A stretch of DNA of 63,631 bases, counting the filler, from Craspedostauros australis (taxonomy: Eukaryota): assembly GCA_030167865.1 (NCBI GenBank). It is 8 parts of 8 records of this genome, joined end to end, with 100 filler letters (N's around TTAATTAATTAA, not from the genome) between each part and the next. Parts side by side here need not be neighbours in the genome. Positions count along the whole stretch, not along the records: positions 10,048 to 34,933 come from JALAGF010000238.1; 7 more parts are not named here. The stretch is one strand, 5' to 3'. Within the stretch, counting starts at the first letter, position 1, and each line of letters opens with the position of its first letter. Below are positions 11,249-47,887 of the stretch, piece after piece. The position numbers were made by a program, and so were the translations under genes. The notes under the pieces are model-generated. The model was not told the DNA's origin. It saw only the letters and a list, made by a program, of their open reading frames with translations, and did not search any database.

Positions 11249-13537
11249 ATGAAGGGATTGGAAAGCATCGCGATGGCTGTTGCTCATCTGGAACATGGCA
11301 AAGGACCAAACAAAACCTCTGCCACAAACAAGGCTGGGAAGGATGCCGATGCGCCTCAAAGCATGGGTCAGACAGCGAACACGATCACGAATACCATCAC
11401 GAATACGATCGCAAGGATGGCCGCGAACCCAACACCCACACAGGTACGATCATCGCCAGCCGCAGCGCAAGCACAAGCAGCATCAGGAGTGGCAGCTGCC
11501 GCTGGTCGACATGCGCATGATGCCAGCGCACTGTTCAAGATCAGAAGCGGAAACGCAGGAGACATGCAGATCCCACTCGCGTCTTCACCCATGTCAAAAC
11601 GAAGCGTCGATGCTCGCGTGGCTGCGGGGGCTCCCATTCCCACAAGAAGGGACTTCGCCAGCAACGCTGCACGACTGGTATCAGCGGATTCCCTGCCGTC
11701 GGACGACAATGATGTGGACGATGGCAACATGCACCGACTGTCCGTCCCAGCTGCTGCGACGATGAACATCCCATCATCGGCCGGATTCCATAGATCCATC
11801 TCGCCCAGCGAGCAGCTGAGCATCAACCACGCTGCAGCAACGGCCGCTGCCGCCGCAGCCAGCCTCCAACACCACAACAACCACCACCTCCATCAACGCC
11901 ACCACAGCATGGCATCCGCCTACCTCGGCGCCCTCGGCCACACCCCAAGCGCATCCTTCTGGTCGACGGCCATGCAGCTCCGAGAGAGCGCCGCCGCTGC
12001 GGCCATCGCCAGAGGAGCGGCCGCCAGCCCTGCCGCCATGCACGCCCATCAGCAGCGCTCCGGATCGCCAGCCAACGCATTCGCAGCTGTTGCTGCCACA
12101 GGCACCGTGAGTGCCGGCATCCCCGTCCACTCTGAGCTTCGCGATCGAAGCCACGGCTCCACCTCGGGCAGTTCCTCTCAAGACCTCAGCAGACACGCGC
12201 CCGTTCCTGCGCCGTGCCCATCCTCTTCGCCGTCGCGGCCGCCAGCAGCGGCAACTGCGGCAGCCACGAACGCGGCGCCTGTCCCCATCGTCCCCAAGGC
12301 CTACTCCTCGATCGAGGACACGGAGGAGCTGGCCCGAACCGTGCCACCGCCTCCATCCCCATCCACCGTCATCACCAAGGTGCTCGAGAACGACGTCCTG
12401 TGTGGCCGCGGTGGTGAGACCAATCACCACCCTGGCAACGTCAAGTACCGCAACCTCGTCAAGTGCTACCAACCGCTGTACATCGTCTCCAAGCGCAGGG
12501 ACAAGCCAAGGATCGCCCAGAAGATTGTCCTCACGATCAGGAAGAACGGCGGCCGCTTCCTCAAGAAGGACAGCGCTACCAAGTCCTGGAGGGACGTTGG
12601 GAACACCAAGGCACGTGAGAAGACTTCGCAAGCGCTTCGCGAAGGTGCGCCAGAGCTTCGCAATGTCGGCAAGTCCGAGAGACGGTCGTCGACGTGCTCC
12701 GGTCCTGCCCAAAACGCCAAACCCAACGCCCATGCTGCGGCGGTTGCGGCTTCCGGTACTGGCGCTGGAAACTCTGGAATCGATACCGGCAGCGCCCACA
12801 GCAGCACAAGCGCCATTAGTGATGCGGCTGCCATGTCGGCTCCGCATCGACCACATAGCTCCATGCAGGAACAGCGTGCACCAATGCACGCTCAGATGCA
12901 CCTCAACATGCAGCAGCAACAACACCAACATCACCATTCCCTGGCCAACACGGCTGCCATCGCTCAGCTGGCAAGCCTCGGGCAGCTTCAACATGCTGCT
13001 GGCCTTGCGCCAGGAACTGCCAGCAGTCTTCTCGCAACCATCATCCATCACCAACAACAGCAGCAGCAGCAACACCATGCTGCGGCACCTCACGCAGCGC
13101 ACCTGTACTCTGCGCTGGCGAGAAGGATGAGTGGCTTCGCCGAGGCCCAGCCCTCCGTAACGGTCGTGAATAGCTCTCATGAAGAGATGCTCCATCGCGC
13201 CGCCAAACGCCACAGGCCAAATCCAACGCAGTCTCAAGCTCAAGCTGGCCGACACGCACAAGTCCCAGCACCAGCTCCAACGATCGCGTCTCCTGCCTCT
13301 GTCCCAAGCAGCGCCGCCACGGCCATCCCATCGCACGTTGGCTCCACAGGGAAGCCATCGCCGGTCTCTCCAACGTCAAGCTACGTTGCAGGTCCACTAT
13401 CGGATGACGGAGACAGCACATCCACCACCCAATCCGCAACGAATTCACCACGATCATCGTCATCATCATCCCCCAGGGGGCGAGGCCCTCGCCTCAAGCG
13501 ACTCAAGCGCCGACTGATAGAACAGTCGGAAGCCTAA
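11249..13537 (+). CDS. DUF6824-domain protein (putative nuclear regulator) with Ala/His/Gln-rich low-complexity flanks
   Basis: ENDVLCGRGGETNHHPGNVKYR...GGRFLKKD...W...AREKTSQALRE, plus a basic C-terminal RGPRLKRLKRR; 762 aa. Confidence 0.9.
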   Translation: MKGLESIAMAVAHLEHGKGPNKTSATNKAGKDADAPQSMGQTANTITNTITNTIARMAANPTPTQVRSSPAAAQAQAASGVAAAAGRHAHDASALFKIRSGNAGDMQIPLASSPMSKRSVDARVAAGAPIPTRRDFASNAARLVSADSLPSDDNDVDDGNMHRLSVPAAATMNIPSSAGFHRSISPSEQLSINHAAATAAAAAASLQHHNNHHLHQRHHSMASAYLGALGHTPSASFWSTAMQLRESAAAAAIARGAAASPAAMHAHQQRSGSPANAFAAVAATGTVSAGIPVHSELRDRSHGSTSGSSSQDLSRHAPVPAPCPSSSPSRPPAAATAAATNAAPVPIVPKAYSSIEDTEELARTVPPPPSPSTVITKVLENDVLCGRGGETNHHPGNVKYRNLVKCYQPLYIVSKRRDKPRIAQKIVLTIRKNGGRFLKKDSATKSWRDVGNTKAREKTSQALREGAPELRNVGKSERRSSTCSGPAQNAKPNAHAAAVAASGTGAGNSGIDTGSAHSSTSAISDAAAMSAPHRPHSSMQEQRAPMHAQMHLNMQQQQHQHHHSLANTAAIAQLASLGQLQHAAGLAPGTASSLLATIIHHQQQQQQQHHAAAPHAAHLYSALARRMSGFAEAQPSVTVVNSSHEEMLHRAAKRHRPNPTQSQAQAGRHAQVPAPAPTIASPASVPSSAATAIPSHVGSTGKPSPVSPTSSYVAGPLSDDGDSTSTTQSATNSPRSSSSSSPRGRGPRLKRLKRRLIEQSEA

Positions 13538-24560: not shown

Positions 24561-25685
24561 CTACACAGATCGTCTCTTCTTGGTTTTCTTCTTTTTCGGG
24601 GCCTTCGTTTCGGATTGTGGTGCCGTTACGCTATCGCTGCCTTTGACCTTCTTTTGCGGTGTGCTGGATTGCGCTGCTTGCTTCTTGGGTGATTTGGATG
24701 GAGAAGCAACGACACTGTCACCCGCAGCGGCATCAAGCCCGTCGGTGGACTTTCGCTTCTTGCCCTTCTTTTTCTTGTCTGATGCTGGAGGAGATGTGAT
24801 GGATCCGACGCTGCCGACGGAATCCTTGCGTTTGCTCTTTTTCCCCTTTTCGGATGATTCAGACGAGACGCTATCAATGGAATCCTTGCGCTTGCCCTTC
24901 TTGGTCTTTTTCTTTTCAGATGAGGAGGGAGGCGGTGTCAATTCCTCTTTCTCCTGCTCCTCCTCCTTCTTTCCAGCTTTCCCCTTGGACTTCGATTTTG
25001 TCGGTGTGGATGGCGACGCAGTAGAAGCGGCAGCTTCGTCTTCCTCCATGCTCGGGAAGTCATAGTCGATGCCCAGCTTTTTCAGCTGCGATTGCTTCTT
25101 CTTCTGTCGACTTATCAGCTTTTTCGTGATTTCCTCCATCTTTCCGCCCTTGAGATTCGCGAGGTTGTGCTCGCGCCTCGAGCGTTCCTGCAGCCGCGCC
25201 ATCTCACGACGCGCAACGGCCTTTCTGGTATCGAAGAAGAGCCGCTTGATCTTCGGGTCGGGGATCCATTCACACACCAGACGGCGGTTCCCCACGAAGT
25301 ATCCCGACAACGTTTCCATGACGATCTTCGCGACATCATGGCTCACGAACTCCACAAACGCAAATCCACGCGGGTTGCCGGTCTTTGTGGATCGGCTCAG
25401 ACGCAATCGACGCAGGTTGCCGAACTGCTGCAGGAAAATCTTGAGCTCGCGCTCCTGGAACTCTTTGGGAATGTGCCCAATGTACAGAACTTTTGACAGC
25501 TTCGCTTCCTTGTCTCCTGACTTGTCGAGCGATTTGGATCCCTTCTTTTTCTGTTTCTTGAGCGCTCCCTTCTTGCTCTTCACCATTGAAATGCTGTCCA
25601 CCTTTGGTTCCGGTTCTTCGTCGCTGCTGTCCCATTCCGGTCCTGTCACAACCGCATCATCAATTTGAGTAGAGCGGATTGGCAT
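24561..25685 (-). CDS. NIFK: NIFK/Nop15-like nucleolar RRM protein
   Basis: VLYIGHIP..F.E.EL..F..QFG...RLRLSRSTKTGNPRGFAFVEF and LKKLGIDYDFP. Confidence 0.9.
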   Translation of the reverse strand: MPIRSTQIDDAVVTGPEWDSSDEEPEPKVDSISMVKSKKGALKKQKKKGSKSLDKSGDKEAKLSKVLYIGHIPKEFQERELKIFLQQFGNLRRLRLSRSTKTGNPRGFAFVEFVSHDVAKIVMETLSGYFVGNRRLVCEWIPDPKIKRLFFDTRKAVARREMARLQERSRREHNLANLKGGKMEEITKKLISRQKKKQSQLKKLGIDYDFPSMEEDEAAASTASPSTPTKSKSKGKAGKKEEEQEKEELTPPPSSSEKKKTKKGKRKDSIDSVSSESSEKGKKSKRKDSVGSVGSITSPPASDKKKKGKKRKSTDGLDAAAGDSVVASPSKSPKKQAAQSSTPQKKVKGSDSVTAPQSETKAPKKKKTKKRRSV

Positions 25686-26617
25686 CGTTGGTCATTTGAC
25701 ATTCCAGCACAGATGGGTGAGGGATATGGGTTCGTTGATTGGAGTTGAATCTCAAGTTCCACAAGACGGACTCGCTCCCACAAAACAGAACAGCGTGGAC
25801 GAACCAAGGCAAACGAAAATGAGGCTGAGCGCAGTTGTGGACTCCATCACCGTGGATTCACCACGCGGTTTCATTCGACATCAACTCATGGACCGCTCTT
25901 GACATCAATGATCAACACCAAAAGAGCAAACGTTAACGAGTCGCATACGGCCATGCAGGTATGCCCAACTCACCATCCAACTTGGCCAGCTGGGCCTCCA
26001 TCTCTTTTTCGCTCGCTTTCGGCATCTTCCGCGTCCAATTCGTTCAGCAACAGGACACGATCTCGATCCTTGTTTGTTGTTTGTTGTTCGTTGTTCGTTG
26101 TTCGTTGTCTTTCGCTTCTTCTCACGCCCTTCTTGCTATCCATGTATGATGGATGATGTTCGGCACCAGGCAGCCGGTAGTCCCATTGCCAACGACGGTT
26201 GCTCTTCTTCTCACCCTCGCTCGCTCTGTTCCTCTCTTGGCATCAACCACTTCAACAGAAAACTTGGTTGTTCGTTCCGTGGAAGAAGTGGAATCAGTTT
26301 TTTGGGTGGAGGAGATGTCAACGTACAACGGAAGGACGACAGATATCGTCGGACGACTGAATGGACTCATATCTTGTTTTTGGCGATCCAATTCTCCGCT
26401 CGACTCAAACGATCCGCTCGCTAATTTTTTTTGGCGCGGAACTGCGTCTGCCTCCACTATTTTTTTCGATTTGACATCACTTCGCGCCATTTGTTTCCTC
26501 ACAAACCTTGCACAGAAACGATTGTCGGAGGGAGACCAGAAAACATGCCAACATCACACTCATTCACTCACAACGCAATCAACAACAACAACAACATCAA
26601 CGGGAGCAACAACAACG

Positions 26618-28723
26618 ATGATGGCCACCACAACCGACGGCGCAACGATCCAATCGGACGTCGAGGTTACGGTGACGAATATGCATGACTTCCTCGAGTG
26701 TTGCAAACTCTGCCCTCGTCCATTGGAGCATGCCGATTCCAGTTCCACCGACGGCGACGTCCAGAAGAATGAAACGCAGCCGCTATCCAAAGCAGACACA
26801 CACAAGAGCGTTCATGGCCACGACGAGAATGATTCAAAGGACAGAATCATGATGAAGCAGCAACTACAGCAGGATGATGGAAATATGGAGAAGGCTGAGG
26901 ACGATCTTGATACGAGCACATTGATGCCGATCCAAATCATTACTGCGTCCAAGCAATGGATGGCATCACTCACGGCCGAGCAACTGTGCAAGTTGTTGAA
27001 ACGGTTGTCTCGAACGCTGTTTCGCAAACGCAGCAAGTCAAAGAGATCGTCGGACGCAACAAAATTAGCCTCAAGTCGCAAAGTCTCGATCGAACAGATC
27101 CAGCTGAATGTCATGATCGTGCTCCAGCTGTGGGGCTGCCATCGCCGTGTGTTCGTGGATCAGTTCACGAAGATATTGGCACATCGTGAATCGAAGTCGA
27201 AACGAAGCAATGAACCACGATCCAAAGCAACGGGTGGCACCAAGTCGCCCGAATCGTCGCAATTGCGCAAAGAACCGGACGAGACCGTCATCATTCGGTA
27301 CCTAGTTGACACGATTTCTTCTGCCGCCTTCCAATTGCGTCAGGACCAACAATTCAGCATCTTTCTCGCGCAATGCATACCACGATTCATTTACAATAAA
27401 AATCGCGATGTTGCCTGCCAAGTGTTCGATGCGTTCGAAGTGCCCAATCCCTACGAACCAAAGGCCATCTCCGATGATGCCGTTCACTTCCAGTCAGCGC
27501 CAACGCGCAAGTCGAAGAAGACAAGAAGAAGCAAGGCAAGCGACAAATCATCGTCGTCGTCGTCGTCGAAGAACCCCATCAAAATCCCAGCGAAGAAGGG
27601 CAAGCTATCCGGGCTGGCAGCCCTGAAGGCGGGCAAATCGATCAATCGGCTTGGCTTGAAACGTTCATCTACCCAACCCAGCCACTTCCAGACGAAGCTC
27701 GGCGACATGTCTCGCATGCTGGGTAAATCGATGGATACAAAGCAGAAGACGCCATTGAAAGCAACCAAGACAAAGACAAAGCTGAAGGCGAGCGACGAGC
27801 GGGCCATCATTACGCCGGTCAATCGCAAGGTGTCCAAATCCATGAGAATCAAGGAGAAGCTTGCGAAATCCGTCGCTACGAAGCGACGACTGTCATCTTC
27901 GTCTCCATCTCGAGTTCCTGCAACACCAACCAAAGCAAGAGCAACAGGCGAACACCCACTCGGCGCAGAATCGAAGTCAAGCAGCGAGGTGCTCGCAGCG
28001 CCAACCAACGTTGTGACGGCCGAAAAAGCAACCATTCGTACGAATGTACAAACCACAACGATGCCGAGTGTGGCGGAAACGCCCATCCGATCCAGACCTG
28101 GCAGCATGAATGGACCAGAGCCATCGGTACCGAGAACTCCCATGGAAGGCAGGCGGTTGCTGTTTGAATCCAACAACGACGTCGCGGCATCGCCACCGCA
28201 ACAGGACGACAATGACGATGACGTGTATGGACGCAGCCCACCCATTCCTGCAACGCCAACAACACCCAGAGCAGCGGCGACATCAACCCGAAAACGAAGT
28301 CGATCAAGCTTCGCAGCATCACCGCCGACAGGATCACTCGCAACAGCAGCAGCAACTACCGTTTGCGACACTCCCGATCGCAACTCACAAACCGTCGAGG
28401 CCACGCCCATCAAGCGGCGGTCCGTCGAACAGAGTAGCGACGACAGCAAGAGCAATAGCCCTGTGGCAAATGGCAACATCTTCAACGCCAACCGGAATAC
28501 GGCTGCATCGAATTGGTCACCATGGTCATCTCAGAAGGATGATGAGACAGAGTATCGCCGCAATCTCAAACCGCGCGCTATCAATCTGTTCGCCTATCGG
28601 GATGAATCATCTGGATTGCACCGATCTACCTCAGCGAGCGCGAAACCGACGGCGTCGCTGAAGAAGAAGAACACTGCACCCGGCAGGCATTCTCAGCCAT
28701 TTCAGCGGTATCGATCGGCATGA
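26618..28723 (+). CDS. Hypothetical nuclear protein; candidate Treslin/Sld3 homolog
   Basis: 701 aa from the ATG at 26618 (frame open from 26153). Helical block IEQIQLNVMIVLQLW...FSIFLAQCIPRF...VFDAFEVPNP and many S/T-P sites including SVAETP. Confidence refers to coding status; the Treslin identity is less certain. Confidence 0.8.
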   Translation: MMATTTDGATIQSDVEVTVTNMHDFLECCKLCPRPLEHADSSSTDGDVQKNETQPLSKADTHKSVHGHDENDSKDRIMMKQQLQQDDGNMEKAEDDLDTSTLMPIQIITASKQWMASLTAEQLCKLLKRLSRTLFRKRSKSKRSSDATKLASSRKVSIEQIQLNVMIVLQLWGCHRRVFVDQFTKILAHRESKSKRSNEPRSKATGGTKSPESSQLRKEPDETVIIRYLVDTISSAAFQLRQDQQFSIFLAQCIPRFIYNKNRDVACQVFDAFEVPNPYEPKAISDDAVHFQSAPTRKSKKTRRSKASDKSSSSSSSKNPIKIPAKKGKLSGLAALKAGKSINRLGLKRSSTQPSHFQTKLGDMSRMLGKSMDTKQKTPLKATKTKTKLKASDERAIITPVNRKVSKSMRIKEKLAKSVATKRRLSSSSPSRVPATPTKARATGEHPLGAESKSSSEVLAAPTNVVTAEKATIRTNVQTTTMPSVAETPIRSRPGSMNGPEPSVPRTPMEGRRLLFESNNDVAASPPQQDDNDDDVYGRSPPIPATPTTPRAAATSTRKRSRSSFAASPPTGSLATAAATTVCDTPDRNSQTVEATPIKRRSVEQSSDDSKSNSPVANGNIFNANRNTAASNWSPWSSQKDDETEYRRNLKPRAINLFAYRDESSGLHRSTSASAKPTASLKKKNTAPGRHSQPFQRYRSA

Positions 28724-43821: not shown

Positions 43822-44848
43822 TCTCCTCGCAAAACGCGTCTCGCTCTCTGTAGACAAACAAGGAAGATGGTCGCTCTCTAGAGATGGTATCACACTTTGT
43901 TGTGCATGCACCGCTGTTTGCAGTGTCCATCATGCAGGCTATTCGTATTATAATATGGTGTTTGAGTCCAATTGCCTCTTCCTCAAAATGTGAGACTGAC
44001 TTCGATATCTAGCTTGGAGTTCTAGTATATCCGTTGGACGAGCATGCTGACATTTTGTGTTTACAGGACCATGCATGCCGGCGTAACGTCTCACATGTTG
44101 CAACAAGCAATCGTGCAGACACGTGACATGAAATCGCCATCTGGACATGCCCAAAAACAATTGACTCTTCTCCAAAACGCTGCCGGTTCCTGTTCGTGTT
44201 GATGAATCATGTGACGAAACCGAGAAAGCTCGTGTCGAGGCGTGATATTTCCTTCCACCCACGATTGCGACGAAGAACATGAACAAATGGAACCATGTGA
44301 ACACACACAAAGACCTTCATGGACTGGACCCAACCATGAGCCACCAACAGCACCACTTCACATCACTGCTCCACACACTTACACCCCACAACGACGAATG
44401 CGACAATACTTGACATCACGGCAACACATCACGGCAACACATCACAGGAGAACCAGAGACCACGAGAGACCTGCTCCAACTCTGCATTGGGAGGTCCATT
44501 CTGAAACGCTCGTAGTCTTGATGGTCGTGGCTTGAAAGCGCTTCCGTCCACATCAGCAACCTCAGGTTCTCCTTCTCCCGGTTCCACGAACATTGCCTCT
44601 GCCACTACCAACACTCATTACTACACCCTTGTGGTCAGATCAAGGTGGTGGCCATTGATCAGGCTATTGTATCGCATTCCACGCTCATGCCCAAGTCCAA
44701 GTCCATCCTCATGATCACATTTGTGCGATAGTTCGAGTCTCCATCGATCCATCCATCGACGCAGGACGCGGAGTGAGAAAGCAAGTGTATGCCATCATCG
44801 CTGACGACACCAGCAACACCACCACCACCAACAACAACAACAGCAACA

Positions 44849-47800
44849 ATGCAGATAGGAGAGGCACAAGGAACGAGGAGAATGATGACGCGGCAACCCA
44901 TGAGAGGCCTGCTGGTGCTGCTGATTGCACTGTGCTGCCTTGGCGCATCAGCCGTAGCGGAAGCAACCTCCAGCACGGATGCAGACGCTGCCAAGGCAAA
45001 ATGGGATGAGCTCGGTGCAGGCATCTATCACGTCCAGTTCGACAGTTACTTGGATGCGACGCAACGGACGGCAGACGCCACGATCCAGCGCAGCAACTTC
45101 GGCATTCACGTGCGTGATGACCAAATCCTGGCAGAGTTCTGGGAGGTCGCACCGGCCGATCAAGCGCAGGTCATGACGATCGATGCTCTCTTCGATGTCA
45201 TCTCCAACGGCACCGTCGCGGCGGTGTTCGATGCCACGCACGGTTACCCGCTCAGCATCACGCAAGCCAGCGCCACGGACCCCTCGCAGACCGTCTTGGA
45301 CGTGCAGATACAGCGCGTGCTCCTACTTGACACCGTCATCTTCAATGAAGTCACCACGAACCTGCTGCGGTGGCAGACCTCCGGTCCATCCGATTACACC
45401 ATGGGGTATCGGAATCATCATCAGGCTGCTATCATTCCGCTTCCGCCGCAAACCATTTCAGACGACCATGGTTCGGTGCAACTCACAGTTTCGGTGGCAA
45501 ACGGCTTTCTCATCAAATCCATCACGGTGACCACCCAATCGGACGCCTCCGGCGGCTCGTCAACGGTCGATGTTGATGTCACGGCAACCACGAGAGATTA
45601 CGTTCAAACGGTCGATGCCTTGTTTCGGGAGCTGGAGTTTCGCATCCTTGGACCGGACCTCGCTGCGTTATCGGATGCGACGATGGAGCCTGTCTTCTTC
45701 CCCACCCTCGTCAATGTCGTCTACGACCAACAATTGGGCTATCCAAACAGCATTGAGATCGTGGCGACGACGTCATCGTCAGTTGTGTCTTTGAGAGCGC
45801 CGCAAACGCGGCTCTTCAACGTTTCCCTTCCCTTCCTGGAACCAGATCGACTTGAGGAACTCAGCGATGCACGAAAGCGTTGGGACGACGCCAAAGACAA
45901 GCTCGGATTGTATGGCACCCTGGTGCGATCGATCACCGTCCCGCAGGATCCCCCCAACCTCCCCATCGACGTGCCGAGATTTTATTCGACGCGCGCGATC
46001 CAGGTGGAGAATGACGAGATTTATTCGGTGCAGTCCGTCTTGGGCGTCGAAGTCCTCACGAATTTGGATGCTCGTCCGGCCAACACCATTTCATGGCGCG
46101 CCATCATTCCACTGGAGGATCTCACCGACGTCGACGATCCCACCGTCACAAGCAACATCCAGCATGGGAACGATTTTGAGCACATTGATGGTGACGACAC
46201 GGACAAGAAGTACTTCACCGTCGACCAGCTCTTTGGCATTCTGGGGTCTGCCCTACGAGAACTCAACAGCAACGAGCAGGAAAACGATGGTGATGATGAT
46301 GGCGGCAGAATATTGGCAGTCTGGGCCACCTACGATGCAGCGAACTTTGGCGTCCCGCGCGCCATCCAGATTCAATATCAAGCACCGAAAACCAAGAATG
46401 GCGATGACGGAGAGGTCCGAGTGTTTATATACAATGTCAGGGCACTGTTGCCGTACTCACTAGCTATGCTGCAGATCGAAGAACAGAAACGGCGATGGGC
46501 GAACTTGGATATGGTGGACTACAGCTTCATCTTCCAGCTGACCTGCTTTTGTCTCGACGAAGTCGTGCAACCCCGACTGGTGGAGATTCGCAACAGTACC
46601 GACATCCAATCCGTCCAGACCTTGCCCAACGCAAGGGGTGTCGGAGAGAGGGATGCCATCAACGATATGCTCCCTGTCATTCGTCCCATGACCGAAATGT
46701 TCGAGTTCCTCAAGCAGGCGCTGGAAGATTCTCCACAAGCCTTCTCTTTCATCTTCGATCCCATCTACGGACACCCAACGTCCATCCATATCAATCCGGC
46801 TCTCGGCATCTCGGACAATTCCTACGTTGCTGAGATCTCCTCCGTCACGCCGATGCGGCAGTCGGAGCTTCAAACCAACCTCACGAACGCCATACAAACA
46901 TGGGAGTCGTACGACATGCAGAATTACAGCTTCGCATTCGTCGACCGGTGTTTCTGTGAGGTGATCGTCCACCAATGGATCGCAGTGCGGGATGGGAAGC
47001 TTCTAAATGTTGATATCGACAACATGGAGACAATAGCTCCTGACGCTGTCGTCGACGTCGGTATCGACGACGCCATGACGATACCGGATCTGTTCGACCT
47101 CATCCAAGACAGCATCAACACCTTGGCGGATAGGTTGGAGGTGGAATTCGATGCCAAGTACGGGCATCCCACAAGGATCTTCGTCCAGCAAGACGAGGAT
47201 CTCGCCGACGCATTTGCTTCTATCTTCGTCTCAATGTTGACGCCGTATTCGGCGTTGTTGCCGGAGGTTGCACAACAGAAGCTCTTGTGGGAGCAACAAC
47301 AGATAACATCGTACACCTACAGCTTCACCAGAAGTTGCGAATGCTTGACGGATGGTGTGCCGGTCGAAGTGGTGGTCGAGGATGGTGTGATCCAATCATG
47401 GACGTTGATCTCACCACAAAACAAATCAGTCACCGGCGCAACGCGATCGGGAGCATCGCCCTGCTCGAGTGCGTTCACCGTGTCGGATTTGCTCGCTATC
47501 ATCGAGGACGCCATCCAGCAAGAGGCACCTAGCATCCAAGTGGATTACGATTTCACAGGACGACCGCTCTCCATCTTCATTGATTACTCACGCATGATTG
47601 CGGACGATGAGTTCATCGTGTCCATGGACTACATGGGCCCGCCGTCAGAGTCGCCGTCATCTGCGCCAACCGTAGCGCCGACATACTTCAGACCATCTTT
47701 GGCACCGACGTCTTCGAATGAAACCCAGGAAATAAAATCGGTAGACGTCGAGACGGCAGCACCAGCCACGACTCCCAGATCCGCATCCGACAGGTCCGGC

Positions 47801-47887
47801 AGTCGGCCGCAGTCGTCGTGGTTTGGGGCATGGTTTGTTGTGGGAGGTGTCTCCGCTTTGATGATGGTGTTGGAGATGATACAGTAG
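44849..47887 (+). CDS. Secreted or membrane-anchored protein with six DUF6174-like repeats
   Basis: Signal peptide (MRGLLVLLIALCCLGASAVA), six W..Y..(CxC)..T...L[FL]..[FY]D...G.P repeats, a Ser/Pro/Thr stalk and a hydrophobic C-terminus. Start may be 44849, 44882 or later. Confidence 0.85.
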   Translation: MQIGEAQGTRRMMTRQPMRGLLVLLIALCCLGASAVAEATSSTDADAAKAKWDELGAGIYHVQFDSYLDATQRTADATIQRSNFGIHVRDDQILAEFWEVAPADQAQVMTIDALFDVISNGTVAAVFDATHGYPLSITQASATDPSQTVLDVQIQRVLLLDTVIFNEVTTNLLRWQTSGPSDYTMGYRNHHQAAIIPLPPQTISDDHGSVQLTVSVANGFLIKSITVTTQSDASGGSSTVDVDVTATTRDYVQTVDALFRELEFRILGPDLAALSDATMEPVFFPTLVNVVYDQQLGYPNSIEIVATTSSSVVSLRAPQTRLFNVSLPFLEPDRLEELSDARKRWDDAKDKLGLYGTLVRSITVPQDPPNLPIDVPRFYSTRAIQVENDEIYSVQSVLGVEVLTNLDARPANTISWRAIIPLEDLTDVDDPTVTSNIQHGNDFEHIDGDDTDKKYFTVDQLFGILGSALRELNSNEQENDGDDDGGRILAVWATYDAANFGVPRAIQIQYQAPKTKNGDDGEVRVFIYNVRALLPYSLAMLQIEEQKRRWANLDMVDYSFIFQLTCFCLDEVVQPRLVEIRNSTDIQSVQTLPNARGVGERDAINDMLPVIRPMTEMFEFLKQALEDSPQAFSFIFDPIYGHPTSIHINPALGISDNSYVAEISSVTPMRQSELQTNLTNAIQTWESYDMQNYSFAFVDRCFCEVIVHQWIAVRDGKLLNVDIDNMETIAPDAVVDVGIDDAMTIPDLFDLIQDSINTLADRLEVEFDAKYGHPTRIFVQQDEDLADAFASIFVSMLTPYSALLPEVAQQKLLWEQQQITSYTYSFTRSCECLTDGVPVEVVVEDGVIQSWTLISPQNKSVTGATRSGASPCSSAFTVSDLLAIIEDAIQQEAPSIQVDYDFTGRPLSIFIDYSRMIADDEFIVSMDYMGPPSESPSSAPTVAPTYFRPSLAPTSSNETQEIKSVDVETAAPATTPRSASDRSGSRPQSSWFGAWFVVGGVSALMMVLEMIQ

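Follow-up and report, generated by a model that had tools for sequence, protein, structure and literature searches.

What does the gene at positions 26618..28723 encode, in a 63,631-nucleotide stretch of DNA from the diatom Craspedostauros australis (GCA_030167865.1; the whole stretch, joined from 8 parts, is hereafter called the window)? A first-pass annotation had proposed a highly diverged Sld3/Treslin, the replication origin-firing factor, which is the key target of the cyclin-dependent kinase (CDK) in origin firing and ranks with the least conserved replication factors. Our analysis supports this identity: the protein is probably a true orthologue of Sld3/Treslin, minimal and highly diverged, with a role in CDK-dependent origin firing, because five lines of evidence converge on a family that had been named beforehand. 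These are the rank in fold searches, the neighbours in protein language-model searches, a Pfam hint, a motif in the disordered tail and the order of the domains, and each of them is weak or moderate alone.

The candidate gene is a single intronless open reading frame (ORF) on the plus strand, coding for 701 amino acids (aa) and ending in one terminal stop. An exhaustive phmmer search of 1.84 billion representative proteins returned 17 homologues at E ≤ 0.001 (E from 1e-12 to 6.5e-4; four at E ≤ 1e-10, none at E ≤ 1e-30), with identities of 25-33%. One of them is a 'hypothetical protein' of Nitzschia inconspicua, and the named homologues are described only as 'hypothetical' or 'uncharacterized'. 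In the alignment of the family (A1), one collinear architecture is common to all 18 members. Its N-terminal part runs from a short helical region through the helix LRQIQWHVxLLLELW and a Lys-rich insert of variable length to the block LSRAAFxLP..FL..CL..VVSxLFDxFE(I/V)PNPY. After this come a basic stretch with GSHFHxKLxDISKLLD, then an I-T-P site and [IV][IV][AG]ETP in one to five copies, and lastly QPVKLFG and a C-terminal AARxxLRRxS. The candidate protein is the most diverged member and retains every family element, with SHFQTKLGDMSRMLGK, SVAETP, INLFAY and FQRYRSA as the counterparts in the part after the domain. Since the 17 homologues share this one architecture, the sequence comparison indicates that the candidate is a real, conserved gene. 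A word-indexed search of 5.8 billion proteins, made with aa 150-480 of the candidate (2582 candidates), with A1 (8000 candidates, left unscored and probably swamped by low-complexity words) and with aa 82-205 of the homologue P0014 (112 candidates), gave no match beyond the P0014 self-hit, and is uninformative on the range of the family.

That the reading frame is non-functional, being either a long ORF that arose by chance in low-complexity DNA or the result of reading a minus-strand ORF at 27484-28479 in the wrong frame, is hardly credible. The tail of the protein is indeed of low complexity, the minus-strand ORF is 331 aa long and the exact candidate protein is absent from a collection of 15 billion proteins; against this, the 17 homologues align in the same frame with motifs conserved along the whole length, and the folded domain is modelled with good confidence (see below). 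The minus-strand ORF, on the strand complementary to the Ser/Thr/Pro/Ala-rich tail, translates into low-complexity sequence of the shadow type and is most likely non-coding.

The first-pass annotation had described one ordered helical block at about 27080-27450. The motifs quoted for the protein are found where they were placed (KVSIEQIQ from 27080, aa 155; FEVPNPY in 27434-27454, aa 273-279; SVAETP in 28067-28084), and the block is present, but it is larger, extending over about 26921-27454 (aa 102-279) and containing a basic, low-confidence loop at aa 199-220. An AlphaFold2 model of aa 90-310, built on the 18-sequence alignment, is all-helical with helices between aa 104 and aa 272, and has a mean predicted local distance difference test score (pLDDT) of 83 and a predicted template-modelling score (pTM) of 0.73. 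Its topology consists of two short helices, a long bent helix (model residues 58-85 and 87-109), the basic loop and four further helices. In A1, a K-rich insert of variable length occupies the position of the loop in all homologues, and L240, F249, F273 and E274, at the C-terminal end of the domain, are invariant.

This organization can be set beside that of the yeast Sld3/Treslin domain (STD), which, in the parts of PMC12416888 drawn on here, spans Y154-P420, is helical and has two disordered loops, R317-S336 and P364-A369; the C-terminal part of its long bent helix α8 and the next helix, α9, grip the DHHA1 domain of Cdc45. By analogy, the long bent helix of the candidate (aa 147-198) is the proposed counterpart of α8 and of its Cdc45-binding C-terminal part, the loop at aa 199-220 that of R317-S336, and the helices at aa 221-272 are proposed to form an α9-like second contact with Cdc45. 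We infer these and all other residue-level equivalences with yeast Sld3 from the yeast description.

Comparison of the domain model with 48,161 chains of the PDB, using VIA-align, which is independent of Foldseek, placed chain 3wi3_A, the yeast STD, at rank 1 (Z 7.3, root-mean-square deviation (rmsd) 3.9, 137 of 215 residues aligned, model 10-188 versus chain 171-421), followed by a designed protein at Z 6.3. The same chain came first again, out of the same 48,161, for the full-length model of P0014, a homologue with 24% identity to the candidate (Z 8.4, rmsd 3.7, 151 of 215 residues aligned, 16% identity, chain 154-421). As far as the models can be relied upon, the elements that characterize the STD fold in 3WI3 and 8J09, a long bent helix, a disordered loop and α9, all appear to be present, with Z values that are modest for a helical protein. 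The weight of this evidence lies in the family named in advance coming first twice among 48,161 chains, and not in the size of Z.

Two kinds of sequence search point to the same family. In a language-model search with two family members (P0001 aa 95-300 and P0014 aa 40-205), the top three of 7.7 million clusters were an Sld3_STD cluster, a Treslin_STD cluster and a cluster of oomycete hypothetical proteins. The Sld3_STD (PF08639) neighbour is fungal, and the Treslin_STD (PF21855) neighbour is a nematode cluster in which 25% of the members carry PF21855. When the 17 homologues were scanned against Pfam at E ≤ 1, the sole replication-related match was again to Treslin_STD (PF21855), on the homologue P0015. 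This sub-threshold match covers the helix TLRQIQLQVVFRLQLW, which is homologous to KVSIEQIQLNVMIVLQLW in the candidate, the helix singled out in the first pass.

The oomycete neighbour, a cluster of 51 members annotated as a 387-aa 'hypothetical protein', was returned by both language-model searches. This cluster may represent the counterpart in oomycetes, in which case the family would span the stramenopiles.

These searches also bear on the suggestion that the protein is a diverged ligand of the Sld2/RecQL4 type, or another CDK-dependent initiation ligand of Dpb11/TopBP1. Sld2 too, as described in the sections of PMC3926958 cited here, is a CDK target of poor conservation; it binds Dpb11 by means of phosphorylated T/S-P sites and has orthologues across eukaryotes, and the tail motif described below would suit any such ligand. 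The folded domain, however, best matches the STD of Sld3, Pfam gave no Sld2/Drc1 or RecQ match for the candidate (E ≤ 10) or its 17 homologues (E ≤ 1), and the language-model neighbours, apart from the oomycete cluster, are all Sld3 or Treslin clusters, so that we regard a protein of this kind as very improbable.

The region after aa 279 had been described as a basic disordered tail with CDK-type sites, and this holds: it contains 77 K+R versus 35 D+E, is rich in S (15%), A (11%), T (9.5%) and P (8.5%), and carries 15 S/T-P sites, six of which have Val at position -3 (binomial P 1.5e-5). One of the 15 is a canonical E-T-P copy, and seven are relaxed [FILMV]-x-x-[ST]-P sites. The canonical copy, SVAETP (T488), is identical to the hexamer around T969 of human Treslin, and arises in only 7 of 200,000 shuffles of the candidate's tail. 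The human contexts VAETP and VEESP, which the first-pass annotation had named, are indeed in print, in the phosphopeptides pT969 LTKSVAEpTPVHKQIS and pS1001 DIGVVEEpSPEKGDEI listed in PMC6175577, and a Xenopus Treslin peptide in PMC3115804 reads ...ISIVEEpSPEK. The consensus given in PMC6175577 for TOPBP1/Rad4 is [FILMV]3-x-x-[ST]-P for ligands of BRCT1 and [FILMV]-x-x-[ST]-P for those of BRCT2, a hydrophobic residue at -3 being needed in both. Judged by its sequence, T488 is thus a candidate phosphosite for binding the BRCT domains of TopBP1/Dpb11, with S525 (VAASP) as a possible second one.

The motif is a property of the family as a whole. The tails of the 18 members hold 43 copies of [FILMV]-x-E-[ST]-P versus 0.67 ± 0.82 expected (maximum 5 in 2000 shuffles); it is found in 15 of the 18, with at least two copies in 12, and successive copies are 9-48 aa apart, mostly 10-23. 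At the level of motifs, the tail has what defines the TDIN region of Sld3/Treslin, namely S/T-P sites that lie close together beyond the C-terminal end of the STD and carry a hydrophobic residue at -3. Of the phosphosite pair of the first-pass annotation, the motif is conserved in the family, while the particular second site, VAASP, lacks the Glu, and its alignment to an E-T-P column is uncertain in this disordered region. T488 and S525 are 37 residues apart, as had been stated; the published spacings of the CDK sites are 32 residues for the human protein, 22 for that of budding yeast and 14 for that of fission yeast (values given in PMC8807876 and PMC6175577).

The sequence RRLLF, also noticed in the first pass, does lie between SVAETP and VAASP. 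An RXL motif near S1000 of human Treslin is reported in PMC3115804, in the part cited here, to be required for TopBP1 binding. Since the family alignment shows no conservation of RRLLF at its position, we gave up reading it as a cyclin-docking motif shared by the family, and a docking role is speculative.

Between the helical domain and the CDK sites lies the motif SHFQTKLGDMSRMLGK, in which H356 and F357 are invariant in A1 and L367 nearly so. The corresponding SHF..KL..(I/M)S.LL segment of the P0014 model is predicted as a short helix (248-258) with a low pLDDT of 55-61. In yeast Sld3, as described in the passages of PMC13572456 used here, Mcm4/Mcm6 primed by the Dbf4-dependent kinase (DDK) is recognized by two short helices within a basic segment (aa 489-540), with the CDK sites T600 and S622 further along the chain. 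The position of the diatom motif between the STD and the CDK sites suggests that it could be the counterpart of these MCM-recognition helices.

The main rival explanation is that the gene encodes a nuclear protein of the diatom lineage, unrelated by descent to Sld3/Treslin, in which a generic helical scaffold (HEAT/MIF4G/CID-like) is joined to a CDK-phosphorylated tail. The V-x-E-T-P motif would then be convergent, and might bind a TopBP1-like BRCT protein elsewhere (in checkpoint, repair or mitosis) or readers of the Cks/Pin1 type. Several results weigh against the Sld3/Treslin identity, and part of them favour this rival. In the VIA-align search with P0014, MIF4G, Nup192, CID and cohesin-loader chains were found at Z 7.2-8.1, near Sld3; the second-ranking chain, a mimivirus MIF4G-like protein at Z 8.1, is within 0.3 Z of 3wi3, and many HEAT/MIF4G/CID chains at Z 7-8 are effectively tied with it. 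A Z of less than 8, or of less than about 13 where the proteins are helical, may reflect a common helical arrangement, and the two models were built on one 18-sequence alignment and are therefore not independent. Identity over the structural alignments with yeast Sld3 is only 9-16%.

Foldseek found no match in the PDB at E ≤ 0.001 for either model, its best hits being designed repeat proteins (E 0.99 for the candidate model, 0.025 for that of P0014). For P0014, 3wi3_B was at rank 17 and 8j09_A at rank 30 of 350,542 chains (E 0.48-0.67), and the target-normalized TM-score of 3wi3_B, 0.40 at E 0.48, was the joint highest among the values shown. When the candidate model was compared by VIA with Foldseek's top 706 chains, a set that does not include 3wi3, the best Z was 5.8, for a cap-binding complex; chains of this complex and of CID domains lead that comparison. 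The structural match to Sld3/Treslin that the first pass had called for is thus seen in the first rank of 3wi3_A in both VIA-align searches and is not significant in Foldseek, and the profile match falls below threshold; neither this check nor that of the phosphosites, the two that the first pass had named, refuted the proposal. Pfam assigned no family to the candidate even at E ≤ 10 (an 856-aa version of the ORF was scanned), and the Treslin_STD match of P0015, at E 0.11, scores 12.9 bits versus a cut-off of 24.2. Neither phmmer with the protein nor the profile of A1 found an Sld3 chain among the PDB sequences: the best phmmer hit was a zig-4 Ig chain (E 2.3), which we took as noise, and the profile returned nothing at E ≤ 10. 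The language-model scores, 0.79-0.84, are below the level of 0.9 above which a neighbour is treated as more than a lead.

The tail and the N-terminus add to these points. The candidate retains a single canonical E-T-P site, and [FILMV]-x-E-[ST]-P is absent from P0007, P0017 and P0019, two of which are possibly truncated predictions. Moreover, RAD9, RHNO1, 53BP1/Crb2 and Mdb1 are TOPBP1 ligands with the same short consensus (as listed in the part of PMC6175577 cited), so that the motif alone is not diagnostic of Treslin. In known members, a vWA/Ku70-like barrel region binds MTBP/Sld7, the M barrel being the MTBP binder in Treslin (as described in the sections of PMC8807876 used here). No such barrel was found: the full-length model of P0014 is all helices with no strand, and in the candidate the domain is preceded by only 101 residues, which are not conserved and are too few to form a vWA domain or a Ku-like barrel. 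The diatom proteins thus appear to lack the N-terminal barrel, a defining feature of the human essential core; we take this to be a variation of architecture that does not exclude them from the Sld3/Treslin family.

Against the generic-scaffold explanation stands the first rank among 48,161 chains, in both fold searches and with the whole crystallized domain aligned, of a family named beforehand. The embedding searches and the only Pfam hint also name Sld3/Treslin, and the order of helical domain, short basic helix and CDK cluster mirrors that of yeast Sld3. We consider the scaffold explanation unlikely. The features on which this assignment rests are collected in Table 1.

Table 1 Features of the candidate Sld3/Treslin gene, in window coordinates
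Feature	Position	Strand	Basis
Whole coding sequence; candidate Sld3/Treslin orthologue	26618..28723	+	ORF list, translation, 17 homologues along length
N-terminal 101 aa, acidic/polar, not conserved	26618..26920	+	No conserved columns in A1
STD-like all-helical fold, aa 102-279, ending in invariant F-E-x-P-N-P	26921..27454	+	AlphaFold, VIA-align, atlas
Long bent helix, aa 147-198, containing KVSIEQIQLNVMIVLQLW	27056..27211	+	DSSP helices 58-85, 87-109
Basic loop inside the domain, aa 199-220	27212..27277	+	pLDDT dips to 63-67
C-terminal domain helices, aa 221-272, best conserved block (LSRAAFxLP...FL..CL...VVSxLFDxF)	27278..27433	+	pLDDT 94-97
Conserved motif SHFQTKLGDMSRMLGK (consensus GSHFHxKLxDISKLLD) in basic context, aa 355-370	27680..27727	+	Alignment A1
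SVAETP (T488), canonical CDK site, Val at -3	28067..28084	+	Aligns with family V-x-E-T-P column
RRLLF, possible cyclin-docking (RxL) motif, aa 512-516	28151..28165	+	Lies between T488 and S525
VAASP (S525), relaxed site, Val at -3, no Glu at -1	28181..28195	+	Fits BRCT2 pattern [FILMV]-x-x-[ST]-P
Two further Val(-3) T-P sites, VCDTP (T585) and VEATP (T596)	28361..28408	+	Motif coordinates
INLFAY, probable counterpart of QPVKLFG	28580..28597	+	Matched by eye; MAFFT did not align
C-terminal basic FQRYRSA, counterpart of AARxxLRRxS	28700..28720	+	Alignment of C-termini

If the protein is an Sld3/Treslin orthologue, a mechanism can be proposed by analogy with the known members. The helical domain (aa 102-279) would act as an STD that holds Cdc45 through the long bent helix and the helix after the basic loop, while the short SHF...LL helix, about 80 residues downstream in a basic context, would help the protein to attach to DDK-phosphorylated MCM2-7. 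During S phase, CDK would phosphorylate the hydrophobic-x-E-T-P sites of the tail, that is T488 and relaxed Val(-3) sites such as S525, and the phosphosites would bind the N-terminal BRCT pair of a TopBP1/Dpb11 orthologue. This binding would bring GINS and Pol epsilon to the helicase, leading to its conversion to CMG, in which Cdc45, MCM and GINS are joined.

The diatom family departs from the known members in having one to five tandem phospho-motifs versus a fixed pair, extra conserved C-terminal motifs, and no predicted N-terminal Sld7/MTBP-binding barrel. A more tentative proposal, for which we would not claim even odds, is that diatom origins are fired by a minimal Sld3 able to work without an Sld7/MTBP partner, and that diatoms read CDK activity through up to five tandem, near-identical V-x-E-T-P sites docking to BRCT domains, instead of a fixed pair; it is because of the oomycete neighbour cluster that this might extend to stramenopiles generally. 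If so, the tandem array would constitute a multivalent, possibly ultrasensitive, S-phase switch, and the core of STD, MCM recognition and TDIN, together with the CDK-Sld3-Dpb11/TopBP1 switch, would be as old as the last ancestor shared by SAR (stramenopiles, alveolates and Rhizaria), plants and opisthokonts.

Sld2 and Sld3 have been called 'extremely poorly conserved', and no Drosophila Sld3 orthologue was then known (PMC3926958, in the part cited). Our full-text literature search, whose one hit was unrelated, found no paper linking Sld3/Treslin with diatoms, Phaeodactylum or stramenopiles, and in the literature searched the family has so far not been reported outside animals, plants and fungi. 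A diatom orthologue would mean that a core of STD plus TDIN existed before stramenopiles diverged from plants and opisthokonts, and would give a handle on the G1/S commitment of diatoms, which is controlled by light and nutrients. It would also be a natural minimal version, without vWA, barrel and apparently Sld7 partner, with which to ask which parts of Treslin are essential, and the SHF helix, the KLFG-like motif and AARxxLRRxS would be new candidate interaction sites.

Three short motifs of the family, GSHFHxKLxDISKLLD, QPVKLFG and the C-terminal AARxxLRRxS, are not described for Sld3/Treslin in the portions of the literature consulted. They are candidate docking sites for MCM, a cyclin, a phosphatase or a checkpoint kinase. 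The AARxxLRRxS region is a C-terminal helix (398-411) in the P0014 model; the RxxS within it was dropped as a checkpoint-kinase site, the position of the Arg varying among the homologues.

As for the extent of the gene, a longer in-frame ORF of 856 aa starts at 26153, the frame being open for 155 codons upstream of 26618. This upstream extension is T-rich DNA resembling an untranslated region (UTR) and is matched by no homologue, while the N-terminus MMATTT, which starts at 26618, resembles those of the homologues P0006 and P0004. For these reasons 26618 is, from the sequence, the likelier start codon, and 26153-26617 probably belongs to the 5' UTR, a segment into which automated gene prediction could wrongly extend the protein.

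The candidate gene is arranged head to head with a gene for an RRM protein (24561-25685, minus strand), and a DHHC palmitoyltransferase gene lies downstream. The RRM neighbour has a long Lys/Ser-rich tail and resembles a nucleolar proliferation-type RNA-binding protein, and the promoter region common to the two genes is at most about 930 bp. A scan of 18 large ORFs in the window showed none that encodes Cdc45 or TopBP1/Dpb11. Two other ORFs of the window, both on the plus strand, carry domains of unknown function, namely three DUF6174 repeats at 44789-47887 (E 3e-70) and DUF6824 at 11249-13537 (E 9e-33).

Among known systems, the closest comparison is with Saccharomyces cerevisiae Sld3, whose STD (3WI3) is the best structural match of the modelled helical domain. 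The two proteins are of similar overall size, yeast Sld3 having about 670 aa, and in both the helical domain is followed by a short helix in a basic stretch and by clustered CDK sites some 200 residues on; in the candidate, the short helix lies 76-91, T488 209 and S525 246 residues after the end of the domain at aa 279. Both internal disordered loops of the yeast domain also seem to have counterparts in the model. The diatom family differs in its low identity (see above), in lacking the N-terminal Sld7-binding domain, and in a phospho-motif that has a conserved Glu at -1 and occurs in one to five copies; the KLFG-like motif and AARxxLRRxS, additional motifs near the C-terminus, are a further difference, to judge from the parts of the yeast literature consulted.

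With human and Xenopus Treslin/TICRR, the candidate shares the pT969 hexamer, and the family motif [IV][IV][AG]ETP resembles the GVVEEpSP and IVEEpSP of the published peptides. An RxL-like motif near the phosphosites (RRLLF here), the Treslin_STD language-model neighbour and the one sub-threshold Pfam match, on P0015, are further likenesses. The candidate is about one third the size of the human protein, which has roughly 1,900 aa, and is without the vWA domain (CIT), the Ku70-like M barrel and the long metazoan C-terminal region. Small nematode proteins that bear Treslin_STD are also among the closest known systems; the 279-aa cluster found among the language-model neighbours presumably corresponds to C. 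elegans SLD-3. In Schizosaccharomyces pombe Sld3, as reported in the part of PMC6175577 used here, the close T-P sites pT636 and pT650, 14 aa apart, bind BRCT1/2 of Rad4 at once, and the closely spaced T-P sites of the diatom tails resemble this arrangement.

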